Made by a program: the position numbers and the translations under genes. DNA of 64,000 nt, taken from Haliotis cracherodii (lineage: Eukaryota). Positions 16,101 to 35,800 of this stretch are shown here, piece by piece. Positions within the stretch are counted from its first letter, which is position 1. Each line of letters begins with the position of its first letter. The stretch lies in the NCBI RefSeq assembly GCF_022045235.1, contig NW_027266275.1, positions 72,354,001-72,418,000 on the forward strand, written 5' to 3'. The notes under the pieces were generated by a model, which saw only the letters and a program-made list of their open reading frames with translations, did no database searches and was not told the origin of the DNA.

Positions 16101-19100
16101 GACATTAAAATATGTTTTGAAGTGTAGTCGCCAGTTTGAAACCAGTGTCGTAAAGCTCGAGAAAGCTGTCATCTGATTGGCCAATGTCGATTTCTTGTCA
16201 GTCATTTCATTGGTCGGTCAAAATTCGCGAAAGGTCATTCTGACGTGACCCGTAATGGGATGTCCTCAGATCTTTGTTTAGATGTAGCGAAAACAAAGAT
16301 CTGATTTTAATGAGATTGTCACAGACCAAGGATCTAGCCCGGTAGCTAAGGGAACTAACTCTGTACAATCAGTGACGCTATAGGTCACTGACATCACCTT
16401 TGTCAACACAAATTGTACATAGGGATACCTACTCCATTGCCATAGGCATGTTATGTTTTTGTAGTAAACGTCTTTTTTATCGCAACTCTTGTAAAGGCTC
16501 ATAGCGTGTTTGTTTAGCAATTCAAACTTGACTGCCACTTCTAAACAGATTCCCTAAGCTACTAAAACTGTTCATTTCAGGACACGGAAACAATGGGTGT
16601 GACACAGCAGGTGAATTGAGAATGAAAACATAGCATACATTTCCTTCTCTACTGGTGGTCTGGCTCTGGAACAAAAACATTACATTTATCGTGCTCGTCA
16701 CCATCGTCGCCATGTTTACAGTGTACACGTAGGCCTTGTGTGCTGCTTGCCTCACCACTGATGTGGCTCATCTAGCTACTGGAGGCTCCGATATGAAAGT
16801 GTGATGGACATGACATTCTAATTTATTTACTCTCTACCACATTTCAATGCATCTTTGATCATCCAGTGTGTTATATCTCCATTCCAGTTGCTATAATTAC
16901 TTTCATTTGGAGCCAGATTCTAACGACAAGATGCTAAACATAGCTTACAATCAAATTACAGATTTATGTAAGAGAAATCTGACCTCAGTTAGTGATAAGA
17001 GAATTGTGAATGTCTAAAGTCCTGAGGCGAATGGGTCCAGGGTAGTTATACTAGAATGGAGATATAATATACTTGATGATCAAGGACATTGTAATGTTTT
17101 ATCTTCCCCATTCATCGGGTGAATGACCAGAAGACGCTATGCTGAACAGAACCATTATTATATATCGATAATATTTGACAGAGCAAGAAGGTTGTAATTC
17201 CTCTGGATAGACAACCCTGAAGCCTCCCTGTAGCTGAGATGATGCACATTCCCCTCTAACATTACGCTATTAGTTCTACATTGACACCTCTAAGGTTAGA
17301 TTCACGACTAATCAACGTTTCACACCGTATGTAGGAGGCCGTTTTTCATTACTTGGTTTACAGAAAAAAATCAATCCATCAGGTCGGTGGTTGCAATAAA
17401 ATTAAACATTAAAATATCTTCAGAGGCTGCTCAGGGTGTTTCTTTGAAAGGACCAAATTAGACTTGGGATAGTTCCTTTTTATTACCAGTGGTGGAATCT
17501 GAACAGCAGGCAAAAAAAGAATAATTTTAAAGAAATCGAATCATATTTAAAATTTGTTGGATTTGTGTGGATCCATAAACCAAGCATCAAGGTAACTTGC
17601 CTCCTCACTTCTAATACTTTAAGTAGAGACTGGTATTAATTACAATATGCAACTACGGTCTTCTTCCACGAAGCATATCAGTGTATAGCACACACACAGC
17701 ATACAGTAACTGACATACATTCTCATCCAGTGCAAGCTTCACAACCGATAAAAGAGGCAGTTATTCATCAATTGGGATACTTCTTGTCTTTAGTTTGTGA
17801 ACAAGTCAAAAAAGAAATAGTTTTACCTGTTACTTTGTTCCAGTCATATTATGAAACTAGACATTTTGTGAAATGGCTGAAATCATCTCGTTCCAACATT
17901 TCATAAAACCTCAACTAAACCTTGTCACTGCGAGACATGACATGACATGAAAAATCCTATTCAGACTTCTGTTTGTTCACCTCAGGCCCGCTCCATGAAG
18001 TATTCTTAGTTGTTTGTTTGTTTGTTTGTTGTTGTTGTTGTAACTCAACACTCAGCAATATACCAAAATACCAGAAATACCAAAAACATTCCCACCCATG
18101 GGCAGTAAACTTCCAACAATGATTTGTTTGTGTTTGTGTTTTTTTTTTTAGCTCTAAGACAGTGGCCTGTAAATAACCAACTCTGGACAAGACAATCCAG
18201 TGATTGAGATGAGCAATGACCCAAATTATTGGGGTACGCTGCCATACAATCAACTAGTTCCATCTAAAGCAGCAGAGAGTGAAGCCACTTAACCTCACGT
18301 ACTGTTTTCTTAGTTAAAAGCCACTGCAGTCACACAAAATACATCTTACATTTGTTAAAATGCAAGGCTTTGAAACTTTTGCAATTTCACAAAACCGTCC
18401 AAGTGGTATGTTTGTGGAATGGAGACCACACGGTGTCATTCAAGTCAGGACATCACCAGACTTAATGATCTCAAGAAATACCTTGCCCGTGAAATAATTC
18501 AGTTAAAGAAATGACAAGTTTCATAACATGACTGTACAACAGACATACCCAATTTCCTGATAAAGGAAACATTTCATGTGAAAAACTTCACTCTATTGCC
18601 CATGTGACAGAAATATCAGTTATATGAGTATTACATGAATGAGTGAGAAATAATTGTGATTATGTTTGAATTGAGGTTTGATACGAGATATACTACAGTT
18701 GGTTATCAAGCATGTTTACTATTCTACAGGAGCCAAACTCGTCTAGTATGTCTAGATTCTAAGTTGTGCAAACTCTTTCACGCAATTATCAAAATTGACT
18801 TTTATTTCATGTTCTTCTAAACCTATGATTTCAGTTACCTCAATTAAAAAGTTACTGAATGTCAATTGTTAACATCCAATTCAATTAAATAAAATAATGG
18901 CTTAAATTTTCATATAATTACTGAACCAAAGTAATTGATTATCTTGTGATAGACGTAGTACAGCCACAGCCTCCACCTACCTTCGGGTCGAACTTTCTAA
19001 ACTGGTCAAGTCCGAGGCCTGTAAACACCAGACACACAATCACAATGATGCAAGNNNNNNNNNNNNNNNNNNNNNNNNNNNNNNNNNNNNNNNNNNNNNN

Positions 19101-21435
19101 NNNNNNNNNNNNNNNNNNNNNNNNNNNNNNNNNNNNNNNNNNNNNNNNNNNNNNNNNNNNNNNNNNNNNNNNNNNNNNNNNNNNNNNNNNNNNNNNNNNN
19201 NNNNNNNNNNNNNNNNNCTGCCCACCAAAATCCCTGAAAGAGGCAAGCATGAGGCACAGGGTACCTATTCTGCCCCGGAATCCCCCACAGGTACATGCAT
19301 GTTACAGTCATTGTATAACTTCAGTCCATACAAAATACAAATGAAAATTTCAGTTGTTTACCAACTGACATATTGTAGACATCGACCAACAGATTCATGA
19401 AACTGTATATTTAATATTGTTGTGCATGGAGTTGAATGTTACAGGGATGCAGCCGGCTACCTACCTTCTGGCTGTTTGATCCCAGGGGTGATGGAACGCA
19501 CAAAATCCTCAGGGGTCATGAACACCTCCCACACCCCAGAGTTTATCTGCACCTTCAGGGTGGCGAAGTACCTGAAAATCTTGTCAGGGGTTGAGTAAGC
19601 TCTGATTCTGTCTTCATACCCGATGATCTGATCAACAAGAGATTACATCTAATGTCAGGTAATTTGGCCCACAAGTACATTGTGTTCTCTTGACTGAAAT
19701 ACAATAATACAGATGATGATGTGAACAAGAAACTGACTAGACTTTGCTGTCTAACTCAGTTTAGATACGTATGACAATGCATGAGTCATGATATGACACC
19801 TGGCATGAGACCTGTGAAGATCTTGGTAGAGATTATGTCTTCAGCAACCCATGCTTGCCGTAAAAAGCGACTGCTCGCCGTAAAAAGCAACTGCTTGTCG
19901 TAAGAGACAACTAACGGGATCGGGTGGTCAGGCTCTGACTTGGTTAATGCATGTCATTGATTCCAATTGGGTGGGTCTATGTCCATGATGTCAATCACTG
20001 GATTGTCTGGTCCAGACTCAATTATTTACAGACCGCCATCATATAGCTGGAATATTGCTGAGTGTGGTGTTAAACAACAAACAAACAAAGAAACAACAAT
20101 GAATACTTCATGTATTGGGCCTGAGGTGAACAAACAGAAATCTGAAAAGGATTTTCTGTCATGCCAAGTTTGGCAGTTACAAGGTCTATCTGATGATTTC
20201 AACCATTTCCAAAAAAATGCTTAGTTTCATAATATGACTGAAACAATGTAACAGGTATAACTATTTCTTTTTTAACTTGTTCACAACAGGATCAGGTGGT
20301 CAGGCTCGCTGACTTGGTTGATGCACATCATCGTATCCCAATTCCATAGATTGAGGCTCATGATGTCAATCACTGGATTGTCTGGTGAATGCAGTGTTAA
20401 ACAACAAACAAACAAACACATAGCATGACTCTAAATGTGAGTCAGTTATAAGTGTAATTCCCCATGTTCATTGTGGCCCAGCTGAAATGAAGTTATGCCC
20501 AACCAGACTGTGATTAGCTTGCATGATTGATTAATCTAGGCACATTAGTCAACTCCAATCTGACATTTTGTAAAGTTGTTTTGAACCAATGAGATACTTG
20601 TCCCACCTTCCGGTCTCTAAAGCCGATCTTCTTCTTCTTGGTCTTCTTGCCTTCGTCATCATGCTCGACAGTCTCACTGGACTGCCCCTCTACAGCAGCA
20701 GCATCCACCTTCAACCACTTCGCCAACATCGTCATTCTGAAACAATGCCACAGCAACTGTTACAAATGTATCACATAACATTTCCAAAAATTTAAATTGA
20801 TGGATGGAAATATTTACTTTTTCAATACTAATTTTCACTACCAATTAGTGTTCGGTGTAACTGCCATTAAAGTAAACACTTAAGGAATGAATCAATATTT
20901 GTTACTTAGTGAGCGACTGTGATCGATACTTAGTATTGGGAAAAAAAATATCGCGATCCACCGATGCATTGGTGTATTGTCCAACCACTATTAGTAAGTG
21001 ACCATAACATCAGGAGGCACCTATGAGATCAATTCAAAAATCCATGTGAACTTACCCATCAAATCCCAAAAACAAAAGCAAGGCTCCGCCTAAGAGAGCA
21101 AAATAAAACTTCGTGTAGCCACTGGATGGACGTGTCTTGTGACCGAAATTGGAATACGGAGTCTGTTTGGCAGCCAGGCAGGCGAGTGTGTGGAGAGAGT
21201 TGACAGGCAGTGATCCAGTTGATGGAGATCTATATAAAGGCAGACACACAACATGAACTGGCGGCAGTGATGACAAAGATGATGGATGCTTGTGTGTGTG
21301 AGAGGCACCACCGAAGACTCTGGGAGCCATGCACACAGTCCTCACAGCTGACCCTCTCTGTTGTAGTAACTTTGCAAATTCCATGGCAAGCATCGTGCCC
21401 TCTCTTTTGATCTTAAATGAGCCCAATTTCCACAT
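1167..21435 (-). CDS. MICU1: Mitochondrial calcium uptake protein 1 (EF-hand gatekeeper of the MCU complex), about 531 aa, 11 coding exons
   Basis: Phase-consistent GT-AG exons in transcript order: 21056-21435, 20607-20736, 19465-19627, 18981-19018, 7177-7291, 5886-5968, 5287-5481, 4892-5032, 2932-3040, 2302-2391, 1167-1318 (sum 1596 nt). Peptides match MICU1: [68 protein letters not shown]-hand [22 protein letters not shown]-hand [23 protein letters not shown], and a C-terminal Cys. Confidence 0.96.
1498..1738. mobile_element. MITE-like element with about 60-bp TIRs
   Basis: CTTATTGATAAAGGTACCTGAAGTAGTAATAATATATCAGTAC... at 1498 is inverted at 1680-1738. Confidence 0.7.
3100..4850. repeat. 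Minisatellite, 39-41-bp unit, about 43 copies, filling a MICU1 intron
   Basis: Unit TTGTGTATATCAACATAACAGCCTCTA(T/C)CACCA(C)GGTGTCC. Confidence 0.95.
6080..7176. repeat. Minisatellite, 16-20-bp units, abutting a MICU1 donor site
   Basis: GACAAGATGGATGACATACA and variants. It accounts for the spurious long ORFs at 6044-7300. Confidence 0.95.
7887..8023. mobile_element. Short palindromic MITE (Tc1/mariner-like)
   Basis: TACTCAACAAAAA...GGGGGGATATTT is inverted relative to AAATATCCCCCC...TTTTTGTTCAGTA. Confidence 0.55.
9630..10050. repeat. Minisatellite, about 16-bp (AGATAGGCAGTCTGAC/CAC) units
   Basis: Visible tandem array. Confidence 0.9.
12154..14452. repeat. Highly homogeneous 50-51-bp tandem repeat, about 45 copies
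   Basis: Unit CCCTGTACTAAGTGTTGATTCCAGTCCCTACAGCTGTAGTTACTGCTGCCC, with an internal palindrome CTACAGCTGTAG. Confidence 0.97.
15809..16318. mobile_element. MITE with about 85-bp TIRs and a 9-bp TSD (Mutator-like)
   Basis: Ends CAATCTCATTAAAATCAGATC... and ...GATCTGATTTTAATGAGATTG. TSD TCACAGACC at 15800-15808 and 16319-16327. Confidence 0.85.
16838..17097. mobile_element. Degenerate MITE-like inverted repeat
   Basis: TTGATCATCCAGTGTGTTATATCTCCATTCCAG is inverted relative to CTAGAATGGAGATATAATATACTTGATGATCAAGG. Confidence 0.5.
19055..19217. other. Assembly gap (163 N) in a MICU1 intron
   Basis: Run of N. Confidence 1.
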
Positions 21436-31549: not shown

Positions 31550-34500
31550 TGTTGAGGAACCTGGGCTGGAGAGGCAAACATTTATGTGTCTTCAAGTTTG
31601 TCACTGATATAGCGCCCACTCGTATACTACTGAAAACAAATTAAAGAACACCCACAATTTGAAGGCCGCGTGTTTCAATATCCACCAGCCATACAAACTA
31701 AACTAGTCATACGAAAATAATTGGGTATTCTGTAATTTCTTTCGATTAGTATATACTGACTGGTCCTAGGTACCTGCTACCACTTCCTTTTCTTTCCACT
31801 GTAAGTTACCAGCAACTGGGTCCTGTCTAATGATGCACTGGTTGCTTGTGTCACTATCAGTGAGTTATTTTGCTGAAAATTTCTTGTTTAATGTCAAGTG
31901 CTAGGTCTGTTCATGAATAACATTATTGATGTTTTAGGTTATTTTGAAGTCAAAACTCAAATCTGAGTTTCAAGACAATTGACAATATAATGAATGTTAC
32001 AGGGACAGTGCTGCCATATCAATTGTGGCATTCAAGAAACGTCAGAATTCATGACAGCTAGGGACTTATCATTTGTATCAATCCATATTCTTTAGTTGCT
32101 CAGGTTCAGTGGTGCTTCACAGAGATCAACTTTTATCAGAACCCACATCAGACATGAAGAGGACAGGAAATGCATCAGGTGATGGTCGAGAAAATCTCAG
32201 TGTCTGCAAAATCACTGATGCAGCATGCAACATTCTATCAAACATTCACTTGTGACATGATCATGCTGCCTGCAGTATGATACCCAGTATTCAGAAGGCG
32301 ATAATTCTACAACGGTCCATCACCATAATATGTTTGACCATCATTAACATGAATGTTCTTCAATACAAGACACAGTCTTCCACTGCAGAATGCACAGCAA
32401 CATAACCAGTACTTGAAATGCTCAGCTGGTGAAGCAATGACAGATAAAGTGCATAACATTTATGAATATTGTCACATTATTTGTCTGAAATGTTGCCAAG
32501 CTCTTTACTATTTTGTCAAAGGAATTATTGCCTCTACAGTAGGCAGGTCATCATATATCTTAAAATCAATAATTTATTACTGTTGATGCTGTATCAATAC
32601 CATGTCATGAATATTGATACTAAATTAGAATTTACTTCCACAGTAATGTTCACAATATAACATTACCATGGTTAAGATGGACAATTAGAATATATATATA
32701 TTTTTAGACATTTTCATGGATCAGCCTAGTTAATATTTTGCATTAATTTGATTAAATGCAGGTCTGCATAGGTAATATTTATCTAAACAAATACATAATA
32801 ATAAAAATCATAATATATTGTGATTCTTTTTAGTACCCAAATTTCTCATCAATAACGCTCCTACTCAAGGGCATCTTTTCAGTTGAAATTTAGCAGGGAG
32901 AAGTGTTTCTCCATTGTGATCACATAATACCAGCATATATTTATTGTGAGTACCACACAACATGCACATGCTTTGTGCATGCTTTGACTGAATGTTTGTT
33001 ATATAAGCATGTTGATTAAGTTTTAAAGGAATCTAGGATCAACCATAGTGGTGGCTAGACGTTAGAACACATGGTTAGACTGACGATAATCATCATAGCT
33101 GGCATGACATCTTTGGTTATAGTTTAACCCTTCAGTCATATTAGGACTGACCATATTCATGTAGTGTGCTGCCTTCAATTGTTTATATATTGTGGGATAT
33201 TAAAAGGTGAAAAGAAATCTTCAGAATTAATTTTCATTCCACTGCGAAACAGCAAGCATGGGTTGCTGAAGACCTATTCTACCCCAGATCTTCACGGGTT
33301 GAGGGATCTTCATGGGATGAGGAACCTGGGCAAACATTTATGTGTGACTTCAAGTTTGTCACTGATATAGCGTCAACTCATGTACACTGCTCAAAACAAG
33401 AATCCACATTCTGTAGTTGCTCAGGTTCAGTGTACTTAGCAGAGATCAACGTTTATCTGTACCCAAATGTCAGATTTAGCTAAGATGAGGACTGAGTGAT
33501 GATCGAGAAAATCTCAGTGTCTGCAAAATCACTACAGCATGCAACATTCTATCAACATTCACCTGTGACATGATCACGGTGCCTCCAGCATAATGTCCAG
33601 TATTCGGAAAGCCATAACTTCACCACAGTCCATCACCATGAATGGAATATTGCTGAGTGTGGCTTTAAACAACAGACAAACAAATATAAGATTGCCATGG
33701 TAAAGATGGAAAATTAGAATTTTAATTAAAATTTAGAATTAACATTTTGATGGATCAGCTTTGTTAATATTTTGCATTAATTTGATTAATTTTAGGTCTA
33801 CATTCGTAATTTTTATCTCAACAAATACAGAATAATTAATTTTATATTCTTAATCAATATATTGTGATTTTATTTAGTACCTAAATTTCCTATCAATAAC
33901 ACCCGTACTCAAGGAGTAGTATAGGTAATGGGGGATATACCCTGAAGCGGGTACACCCACGATGGCTCCAGTACCAAAAACCAGGAGAAAAGCACTAGAT
34001 CTAGAAGCAGGAGCATATACTTGCTATCGGTATGCTAGAACAAAGTATCGTGGCAATCCAGGCACATATTTGTATATTGTTTCCAAAGATGGTGTAGAGA
34101 CACCGGTATATGGATTCTTCCTGGAGAAAGCTATGGACCGCTCATCTGCCGGCTTGGTAGAACGAAAAGAAAACCAGACAGAAAAGTAGATCGTCTAGCC
34201 TATATTACACAAGCCTAGTAGGTAGAAAAACAGCTCTAGAGGAAATGATACGAAGTTTGCCGAGGCTTCGATGTCTGTTGTATAAGAAAACGAAGTCTAG
34301 TATCTTGCCGGACTCGATTGCAGGACGGAAGACGCATAGATATATCTCTAGAAACTGCTTTGGGATTTGGTGCCTCTCGTAGAAAGTATACCCTAAATAC
34401 TCCAAGATTTGTTTCTCTCTATCGGATAGGAATAAATAGCCTATTTGGGGGCATTTGTCTTAGTTTAATGTCATGTCGATCGTGGAATAGCATAATCATT

Positions 34501-34745
34501 TTAATGGGAGAGAGAGAGAGAAAAAATCCCCCTACTGTAGTAGTAGTAGTAGTATTGGGGTATAAATCTGGCCCCATCGTGGGTGTACCCGCTTCAGGGA
34601 GTATCCCCCATTACCTATACTACTCAAGGGCATTCATCTTTTCACAATCAGTTGATATTTAGCAGGGAGAAGTGTTTCTCCATCGTGATCACATGATACC
34701 AGCTTATGTATTTTGTGGACAAGTACCATACAAGACAACATGCCC
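31550..34745 (+). repeat. Diverged local duplication (copy A about 31550-32965, copy B about 33319-34745)
   Basis: Collinear shared blocks, e.g. GAGGAACCTGGG..CAAACATTTATGTG, GTTGCTCAGGTTCAGTG, CGAGAAAATCTCAGTGTCTGCAAAATCACT, TAATATTTTGCATTAATTTGATTAA, TTTAGCAGGGAGAAGTGTTTCTCCAT. Each copy has its own insertions. Confidence 0.85.
33915..34624. mobile_element. 710-bp non-autonomous DNA element with AGTAGT...ACTACT termini (Polinton/Maverick-like miniature)
   Basis: 57-bp TIRs at 33915-33971 and 34568-34624 (4 mismatches). TSD CAAGG at 33910-33914 and 34625-34629. The empty site TACTCAAGGGCAT is in the paralogous copy at about 32862-32874. The element is clear from the sequence; the Polinton assignment is inferred from the termini. 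Confidence 0.75.
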
Positions 34746-35001: not shown

Positions 35002-35562
35002 TCAGGCCTGGTCAACATCACTGTCGTCATCACTGTCATTATTTGTAATATTTTCCTCATCAACTTTGTCTATATCATCTTTGTGGATTTTCTTCAGCTT
35101 GAAATTCTGAACATATTTTGTTTCACCGCCCCACAGTTTAAACTCACTGAAGGTTGATTTGTTCATTAAATCGGGAACATCAAGTCCAACACTCTCCAAC
35201 TCATTCTTGTCACTGTCCTGGGTCAGCTTTATTGCCGCTAGCCTGGAGGCGTGCTGATTGCCTTGTCGGTTTCCAATCCGAGACACAATATCAATCTGCT
35301 CAATCTCGTCATCAAACCTGTGTAAGTAGCGCTTACTGAGTTCACAAAGCTCTTCCCTCGTATACACAGATTTGTCGGAGTCAATGTTTTCCCTGAACCA
35401 GTCACATTTTTCCGCTAGAACATCCAGCTTACTTCTTGCCGATTTATCTTTAGAAATTCGCACATCCCGAAACGCTTTCCTTGACAACGCAGCTGCCTTC
35501 CTGCTGTTAGGGTGAATGGGTTTTTTGTTTTGACCAACCTTGGCTTTAGGTGCCTTTGGCAT
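35002..35562 (-). CDS. TMA16: Translation machinery-associated protein 16, 186 aa, single coding exon
   Basis: MPKAPKAK...KPIHPNSRKAA, WF, YLHRFDDEIEQI, RQGNQHASR, GLDVPDL and an acidic tail are typical of Tma16. AATAAA (minus strand) at 34954-34959. Confidence 0.9.
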   Translation of the reverse strand: MPKAPKAKVGQNKKPIHPNSRKAAALSRKAFRDVRISKDKSARSKLDVLAEKCDWFRENIDSDKSVYTREELCELSKRYLHRFDDEIEQIDIVSRIGNRQGNQHASRLAAIKLTQDSDKNELESVGLDVPDLMNKSTFSEFKLWGGETKYVQNFKLKKIHKDDIDKVDEENITNNDSDDDSDVDQA

Positions 35563-35800
35563 TTTCCGGCTGGAAGATGAAAACGGGCGTGCACTAGTTC
35601 CAGTTATTATTCCCAGTATGTACAATTCTGTCGGTTATTTAAGCTACAGTAACAGTTGTTTCTAGACAGCCCTTGCACCATAACACGAACACGTGTTTTC
35701 GACGGAAACGGAAGTACGGTGTTAGGTAAGTACTTTTATCCAATCAGAGCCTTCGAAAGCATTCATCTCGTGTTTGACATCTTCGTGCATGTGGGGTGAA
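35563..35800. promoter_or_regulatory. Bidirectional promoter region for TMA16/MRPL12
   Basis: Only 238 bp separate the divergent ATGs. The gap contains CACGTG, tandem CGGAA/CGGAAGT (ETS-like, about 35703-35715) and CCAATCA (about 35740). Confidence 0.7.

Follow-up and report, generated by a model that had tools for sequence, protein, structure and literature searches.

A 710-bp insert in the window (the whole 64,000-nt stretch of Haliotis cracherodii DNA analysed here) is probably a single-copy, rearranged remnant of a low-copy element family, W, likely inserted by the integrase of a co-resident Polinton of ~14.5 kb, with internal junctions formed by template switching and an ancestry in the lineage of a cassette that encodes a putative nickase. 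The insert is very probably a Polinton-dependent, non-autonomous element, its ends and target-site duplication pointing to mobilization in trans. The features on which this reading draws are as follows.

33910..33914, + strand: left target-site duplication CAAGG (from the sequence and the duplication length of long partner elements)
33915..33965, + strand: left terminal inverted repeat, 51 bp, its first 20 nt being the terminus of a ~14.5-kb Polinton family
33963..34231, + strand: tail of the family-W long ORF, ~90 codons with one frameshift, 87% to W copy L031
34234..34434, − strand: family-W ORF-A fragment, inverted relative to the preceding piece, 96.5% to L031
34440..34624, − strand: family-W right arm, comprising the ORF-A start region, a subterminal arm of ~150 nt and the right repeat
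34574-34624, − strand: right inverted repeat, part of the family-W right arm
34625..34629, + strand: right target-site duplication CAAGG
32866..32870, + strand: single CAAGG, empty paralogous target
32654..32960, + strand: old duplicate block without the insert, matching 33683-33914 plus 34630-34733

The insert (33915-34624) has AGTAGT...ACTACT ends with CAAGG on either side; its 5' sequence is AGTAGTATAGG and its 3' end is the complement of this. The paralogous block, 1044 bp upstream of the insert flanks and 78% (left flank) and 86% (right flank) identical to them, is continuous through one CAAGG, confirming a real insertion of 710 bp as claimed in the preliminary description made from the sequence alone. 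The 57-bp inverted repeats given there were too long: a repeat finder returns 58-nt arms, but comparison with the parent family W shortens the true repeat to 51 bp with two mismatches, as bases 52-57 are already part of a coding piece from the interior, whose junction has TGG as its microhomology. The left repeat is truncated by comparison with the 104-111-bp repeat of family W (104-229 bp over all W copies). Intact ends can form a terminal hairpin, of which the left repeat has lost the 3' arm. The duplication had been proposed as either CAAGG or TCAAGG; the 5-bp form stands and the 6-bp form is rejected, because exact 5-bp duplications were found at 17 of the 19 long same-terminus pairs fetched. 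A resemblance of the target to the element end (CTACT before CAAGG) was attributed to chance, as it recurs in only two other flanks (L175, L078). Contigs from two other DNA runs with the same organism label (X1, X5) span the right junction and contigs from one (X5) span the left, so the insert is no assembly artefact. No insert-skipping joint, which would mark an empty allele, is present among the joints listed in four DNA runs, and no RNA data are listed as containing the insert.

Termini, junctions and family members were sought in the 1.18-Gb genome. The first 20 bases of the insert have 560 exact matches (283 + 277; reversed control, 0), and the first 100 of these listed contain at least 27 inward-facing terminus pairs, with a spacing of 10-22 kb in 24 cases. 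All six long pairs examined enclose ORFs for integrase, PolB and A32 ATPase as well as capsid-like and penton-like ORFs (one has only 52 aa of PolB, and 'penton-like' is an interpretive label without a family match), so the long Polintons with the same terminus that the preliminary description had anticipated do exist. The rve (E 5e-9) and Pox_A32 (E 1.8e-10) matches lie above the Pfam cut-off, and the Capsid_N matches (E 0.0025 and 0.00064) are weak and fall below it; the capsid-like ORF has no PDB match, and no protease family that might represent a maturation protease was detected among 13 partner ORFs scanned. The PolB ORF has no direct PF03175 match and aligns with a PF03175-positive ORF at E 7e-177. 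It was identified by reading the elements between their termini and not by the genome search with PF03175, which, among the best 82 of its 1069 candidates, brought up other Polinton families, none within the listed terminus pairs. By its integrase, PolB and packaging ATPase, the partner family is a Polinton.

The AGTAGT...ACTACT ends of the insert match the (AGT)2 motif of Polinton inverted repeats (PMC8097293, as far as its available text goes), bearing out their earlier assignment as a Polinton-type terminus. The same source gives 6 bp as the target duplication of vertebrate Mavericks; with 5 bp at 17 of 19 long elements, the partner family departs from that rule. Among 20 further elements, 14 have a 5-bp duplication, 2 have 6 bp (both of them cassette elements, described below) and 4 lack an exact one. 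A second Polinton family in the genome differs in its terminus and has a 6-bp duplication, so the insert matches one particular Polinton family, which accounts for no more than ~0.4% of the genome. The 20-nt terminus and the 5-bp duplication common to both, together with the abundance of the partner, uphold the view that the insert is a non-autonomous element with an autonomous Polinton partner. Beyond base 20, the ends of the insert and of W are only about 67% similar to the partner over 150-165 nt, and the part of helper may therefore have fallen to a sister family that is older or was not seen. Likeness to a Polinton is confined to the terminal ~165 nt of the insert.

The remainder of the insert derives from family W, and its interior as a Polinton deletion product is therefore rejected. 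Family W is of low copy number (its arm motif has 15 exact genome matches) and about 2.4-3.4 kb long when uninterrupted, with a 5-bp duplication in five of the six copies having both ends. Bases 49-710 of the insert align to it as three rearranged pieces: relative to L031, bases 1-51 are the repeat, 49-317 are the end of the long ORF in the sense orientation, and 320-520 and 526-710, on the opposite strand, are the ORF-A start and the arm. The three internal junctions carry microhomologies of 1-4 nt, with one strand switch. Each of the two junctions tested has a single match in the genome with up to two mismatches allowed, and the only contiguous end-to-end match to the insert, among the best 40 of 65 candidates, is the window copy itself.

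The insert thus contains two coding remnants that had escaped the preliminary description. The first (window 33963-34231) matches the C-terminus of a family of ~850-aa proteins (hhalign probability 98.7, E 1.5e-16), as does a longer family-W piece (E 7e-39). The second, the ORF-A fragment, has 95% amino-acid identity to the L041 ORF. The protein of W ORF-A carries at its N-terminus a segment resembling a helix-turn-helix, and it also has a Cys/His cluster (interpretive labels in both cases); the helix-turn-helix-like segment is 32% like the second ORF of the cassette. The W ORFs match nothing in Pfam or PHROGs and contain no transposase domain; ORF-A has no relatives among longer proteins (a weak test), and the sole outside relative found is one 150-aa match. 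Family W combines the C-terminal domains and the downstream HTH-like gene in the layout of the cassette, without the Rep-like domain. Judged from sequence, W is a sister of the 3.7-kb Rep_trans-like cassette that has kept the C-terminal domains and apparently lost the putative nickase domain.

The unique tested junctions, their 1-4-nt microhomologies and the missing hairpin arm of the left repeat would also suit a history in which a full-length W inserted and host repair, through microhomology-mediated template switching, afterwards cut it down and inverted part of it within the chromosome, so that the 710-bp form never moved. We consider this account unlikely, although it deserves serious attention. 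Fold-back forms with intact duplications recur among W and cassette elements (L031/L032, L038, L070, L155/L156, L171 and L226), with the same end present twice, a pattern that extrachromosomal replication explains more easily, and the orientation of the pieces in the insert fits a deletion plus copy-back from one end. That the 710-bp form arose before insertion is, in our estimation, quite likely.

The Rep-like gene is carried by a 3.7-kb cassette whose fixed end reads TCAA-GAAGGCG...GGCACCCC twice; where both cassette ends survive (L084/L159), they form 58-bp inverted repeats beginning TCAAGAAGGCG. The cassette-only pattern marks 17 ends in the genome, a figure that comes down to about 13 elements once paired ends of single elements and a tandem copy are allowed for. 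Sixteen of the 17 adjoin Polinton arms; they face inward, and their positions in the arms vary widely. At 15 of the 17, Polinton arm DNA could be aligned right up to the junction; of the remaining ends, one lies 53 nt from a terminus, and at the other 1.2 kb of different DNA intervenes. Measured from the terminus, the junctions are scattered between 53 and 707 nt, some in the repeat, others in the integrase gene or in the final gene of the opposite arm, and the order is constant, running from the terminus inward to the cassette. The cassette-Polinton chimeras are flanked by 5- or 6-bp duplications and must therefore have integrated as units. In a second cassette subfamily, ~50% identical to the first, the fixed end is related, and the DNA to which it is joined is the integrase gene, the repeat or a W arm; three cassettes in all (L041, L046, L047) sit on family-W arms. 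T(C/T)A occurs at 10 of 15 junctions against a background of 4%, a figure that may include alignment bias and that microhomology fits equally well. Of 20 further loci, L219, L221, L225, L227, L232 and L233, in which the beginning of the cassette was lacking or lay beyond the sequence read, were left unscored for a Polinton link. The cassette-end motif is absent from the ends of W copies and from the insert, its few loose matches lying elsewhere, so arm capture by W is argued from kinship.

Among metagenome contigs from another source, nine related ones carry a homologous fixed end, which occurs at five distinct junctions; a PolB gene is the site of two of these. Polinton genes accompany 6 of 37 metagenome loci, five probably from one organism, and most of the loci are short or lack the end.

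The ~850-aa proteins form a sizeable family (118 matches in one search; 356 clusters at E < 1e-30) from marine invertebrates. Its named members are hypothetical proteins of the sea slug Elysia, the sea anemones Nematostella and Actinostola and the coral Porites, plus one entry filed under a bacterial MAG, and the family has no Pfam model. An unbroken natural copy (L082, 824 aa) gave a predicted structure with a pLDDT of 90.7, comprising a Rep-like N-domain, a coiled coil and two beta-barrel domains. In a Foldseek search with the N-domain (first 360 residues), the only matches at E ≤ 0.001 were four RepSTK1 chains (E 1.3e-4, probability 0.97), followed by TBP, although at a TM-score of 0.23-0.30 the RepSTK1 match is remote. 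VIA-align placed TBP and RepSTK1 at the head of its list at Z 6.2-6.6, which is weak; RepSTK1 (Z 6.2, rmsd 6.5, 182 residues aligned) tied with TBP, no match reached Z ≥ 8 (the usual chance ceiling is 7-8), and the C-terminal domains were barely covered. ESM Atlas leads stayed below 0.9 (Rep_trans 0.81; phi29-like SSB 0.77). The C-terminal domains have weak fold matches to single-strand-binding (OB/SSB) proteins and on this weak fold evidence may be OB/SSB-like.

Eight residues are nearly invariant in the aligned rows (D65, 79/79; D199, 83/84; D203, 84/84; K264, 84/84; Y266, 84/84; K268, 83/84; R313, 82/83; E315, 81/83), and they follow the order of D46, D142, D146, R189, Y191, K193, R212 and E214 in RepD (PMC4797284, in its available part). 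This equivalence is by sequence order, without superposition, and the counterpart of RepD R140 is S or C. PF02486 matched neither the 824-aa protein nor 30 relatives, and searches of Pfam, PHROGs, PDB sequences, phages, plasmids and viral contigs returned nothing for the Rep-like protein. Together, the predicted fold and residue order suggest a protein that resembles Rep_trans in its working rather than one belonging to PF02486, with nicking as its predicted activity.

RepD and RepSTK1 themselves resemble TBP (PMC4797284, same part). The cassette protein might instead be a mere TBP-fold DNA binder, the arms having been gained by polymerase template switching at TCAA microhomologies; the elements would still be Polinton satellites. 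TBP does tie with or outrank RepSTK1 in VIA-align, the 4-mers at the junctions are partly common to the target, and template switching is evidently common in these elements. We nevertheless find this reading rather improbable: in the different subfamilies the donor breaks at exactly the same base and the target varies, the acidic triad and the Tyr-Asn-Lys residues are nearly invariant, and Foldseek ranks RepSTK1 first.

Nickase-driven arm capture remains our marginally favoured origin for the cassette lineage. Rep_trans enzymes cut a single strand, remain attached to the 5' phosphate and then join strands again (PMC4797284, PMC13107129), and the accepted view of Polintons is one of protein-primed replication starting at the ends and of integration by an rve integrase (PMC8097293, PMC6431247), insofar as the accessible portions of these papers describe them. 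We lean slightly towards a scheme in which marine invertebrates harbour undescribed Polinton satellites, 3-4-kb cassettes whose Rep_trans-like nickase splices the fixed end onto replicating Polinton arms, replaces the interior and so gains an origin, an integrase and perhaps a capsid, the insert being a dead copy-back product of a nickase-less branch. The Rep-like tyrosine nickase would cut the cassette end, remain on its 5' phosphate and join that 5' end to the strand read inward from the Polinton terminus, at T(C/T)A-like sites. Once both ends had been joined, or one joined and then copied back, the Polinton interior would be replaced by the cassette, which would thereby acquire the Polinton replication origin and integration signal. 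During protein-primed strand-displacement replication by the helper PolB, template switching could produce deletions plus copy-back from one end, and the helper integrase would then insert the copied product. Further slips of the polymerase would give ever shorter fold-backs, the insert among them; W would have lost the nickase domain and the window copy almost everything.

MITEs and other non-autonomous derivatives of TIR transposons are short, TIR-bounded and reliant on the enzyme of a partner, and non-autonomous Polinton derivatives are a known idea with entries in Repbase; an unnamed Repbase entry for the present elements may exist. The insert resembles MITEs in being short, in its inverted repeats and target duplication and in its dependence on a partner enzyme, and the preliminary description had accordingly proposed a MITE-like element and expected many genomic copies of ~700 bp. 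Its size, ends, duplication and autonomous partner, and the existence of other short one-off forms (470 bp, L069; 590 bp, L042), agree with a non-coding miniature Polinton amplified as a ~700-bp family. The assembly contradicts this. The two junctions tested are single-copy genome-wide, the expected copies did not appear among the candidates searched, the interior is inverted coding DNA of W and not of the Polinton, and the other short forms are built differently from the insert; a MITE-like origin is accordingly very improbable. Least probable of all is that W was mobilized by an unrelated cut-and-paste transposase coincidentally using AGTAGT ends and 5-bp duplications. In favour of this, the W ends diverge from the Polinton beyond base 20, and the listing covered only 100 of the 560 termini, with few elements inspected. 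Against it, the agreement of all 20 terminal bases and the similarity over ~150 nt of subterminal DNA connect W to the Polinton, each long element inspected proved to be a Polinton, the elements examined have no transposase of another superfamily between the same ends, and the scanned W ORFs contain no transposase domain.

By itself, the 710-bp insert is a minor fossil, and its value is as a pointer to a lineage that is possibly a new class. If our reading holds, the chain of parasites in animals gains a level (host, Polinton, satellite), and a Rep_trans-like enzyme occurs in animals; such enzymes had appeared restricted to bacteria before being extended to archaea, and the 2026 report, in the portion available, describes initiators of this fold only in bacteria and archaea (PMC13107129). 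Within the literature searched, it would also be the first case of a mobile element of animals with a non-HUH rolling-circle nickase, and a novel form of parasitism between mobile elements. As the fixed cassette end gives a defined substrate, the nickase claim is directly testable in vitro. The frequent fold-backs with intact duplications provide indirect evidence for extrachromosomal strand-displacement replication of Polinton-ended DNA in the germ line, so far largely an assumption. The full-text literature, outside subscription journals, Repbase Reports and supplements, yielded no paper on such cassettes and none describing Rep_trans-type elements that occur in animals or are linked to Polintons; its closest concepts are TIR-invading helicases of Polinton-like viruses (PMC11296320) and HUH transposons (PMC10288648). 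The available parts of PMC8502044, PMC11414722 and 10.1101/2025.02.07.637071 hold nothing bearing directly on the cassettes.

Compared with known systems, as far as the accessible text of the sources cited describes them, the insert shares the (AGT)2...(ACT)2 ends and short target duplication of Polintons/Mavericks (adintoviruses; PMC8097293, PMC6431247, PMC8502044), but it is 710 bp long in contrast to their 15-25 kb, carries no Polinton genes, has a foreign interior and is flanked by 5 bp rather than the 6 bp of vertebrate Mavericks (PMC8097293). The ~850-aa family is like Rep_trans (PF02486; RepD, RepSTK1; PMC4797284) and the archaeal Rep-Arvir (PMC13107129) in its predicted TBP-like fold and the order of its catalytic residues, and unlike Rep_trans in its coiled coil and two beta-barrel domains, its lack of a sequence-level match and its presence in animal genomes; the insert and family W, unlike the related cassette, are without the Rep_trans-like domain. 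Parasitism of a larger mobile element or its origin has parallels in the mobile helicases proposed as TIR invaders of Polinton-like viruses, where a small replicon gene parasitizes the end of a larger element (PMC11296320 and a preprint), in IMEs that have Rep_trans relaxases and insert themselves into the oriT of ICEs (PMC7563843) and in transpovirons (PMC8877843). These differ in the enzyme or domain of life involved, and none, in the available parts of those sources, takes both arms of an animal Polinton. The fixed donor end and the oriented joining at a short target motif recall IS91, Helitrons and Replitrons (PMC10288648); those elements use HUH enzymes and insert into host DNA, whereas the cassette combines a predicted non-HUH fold with inverted ends, and its targets are confined to the arms of another mobile element, whose interior it replaces.

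Other features of the stretch that holds the insert with Polinton-type ends are as follows (window positions).
32080-32960 and 33329-34733: the two copies, approximately 80% identical, of a local DNA segment some 1.3 kb long that was duplicated long ago
33643-33684: a short repeat of very high copy number
35002-35634, minus strand: an unbroken ORF that encodes a TMA16 protein (Pfam PF11176, E = 6e-37); some 380 bp separate its end from the insert
3109-63036: at least 12 minisatellite arrays, with units of 16-55 bp, the longest array spanning 2.1 kb
19055-19217: a run of N
It is the old local duplication that supplies the empty target site of the insert.

The first ~66 nt of the end of the abundant, ~14.5-kb Polinton family are predicted to form a hairpin in which the terminal 13 nt are paired (positions 501-566 in both L071 and L063, two loci read for comparison). 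A looser form of this hairpin is retained in the ends of family W, the low-copy gene-carrying elements (in the insert at window 34545-34624, its right end), and it is gone from the left end of the insert. Other short forms were found once each: a 470-bp pure Polinton deletion form (L069 501-970) and a 590-bp piece of family W (L042 2843-3432), both with exact 5-bp duplications; the second end of the family-W piece matches over only ~20 nt.

Family-W copies have themselves received insertions. A 15.6-kb Polinton sits at the extreme end of a family-W arm (L078 1066-1069; G000:C12:43965066, on the same contig as the window), the final three bases of which form part of the Polinton's duplication, ACTCA. 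Two family-W copies are interrupted by retrotransposons (L031 ~7700 to L032 ~3900, and L034 3900-9200); judged by reading the sequence, one insertion resembles a BEL/Pao pol gene and the other carries a reverse-transcriptase-like ORF.

A complete cassette of the kind that is found joined to Polinton arms also occurs on a metagenome contig (L105 348-4558), with inverted ends of 138 bp and the same cassette-end motif; no clear Polinton gene was seen adjoining it on that contig.

Finally, the genome contains a second Polinton family (L073 3248 to L074 5822), with the terminus AGTAGTTAAG, inverted repeats of 1560 bp, a 6-bp duplication and, in many copies, long and open PolB frames. Among the matches listed for the terminus that the insert shares with the ~14.5-kb family, Polinton termini cluster strongly at 38-46 Mb of G000:C1 and 27-35 Mb of C3.
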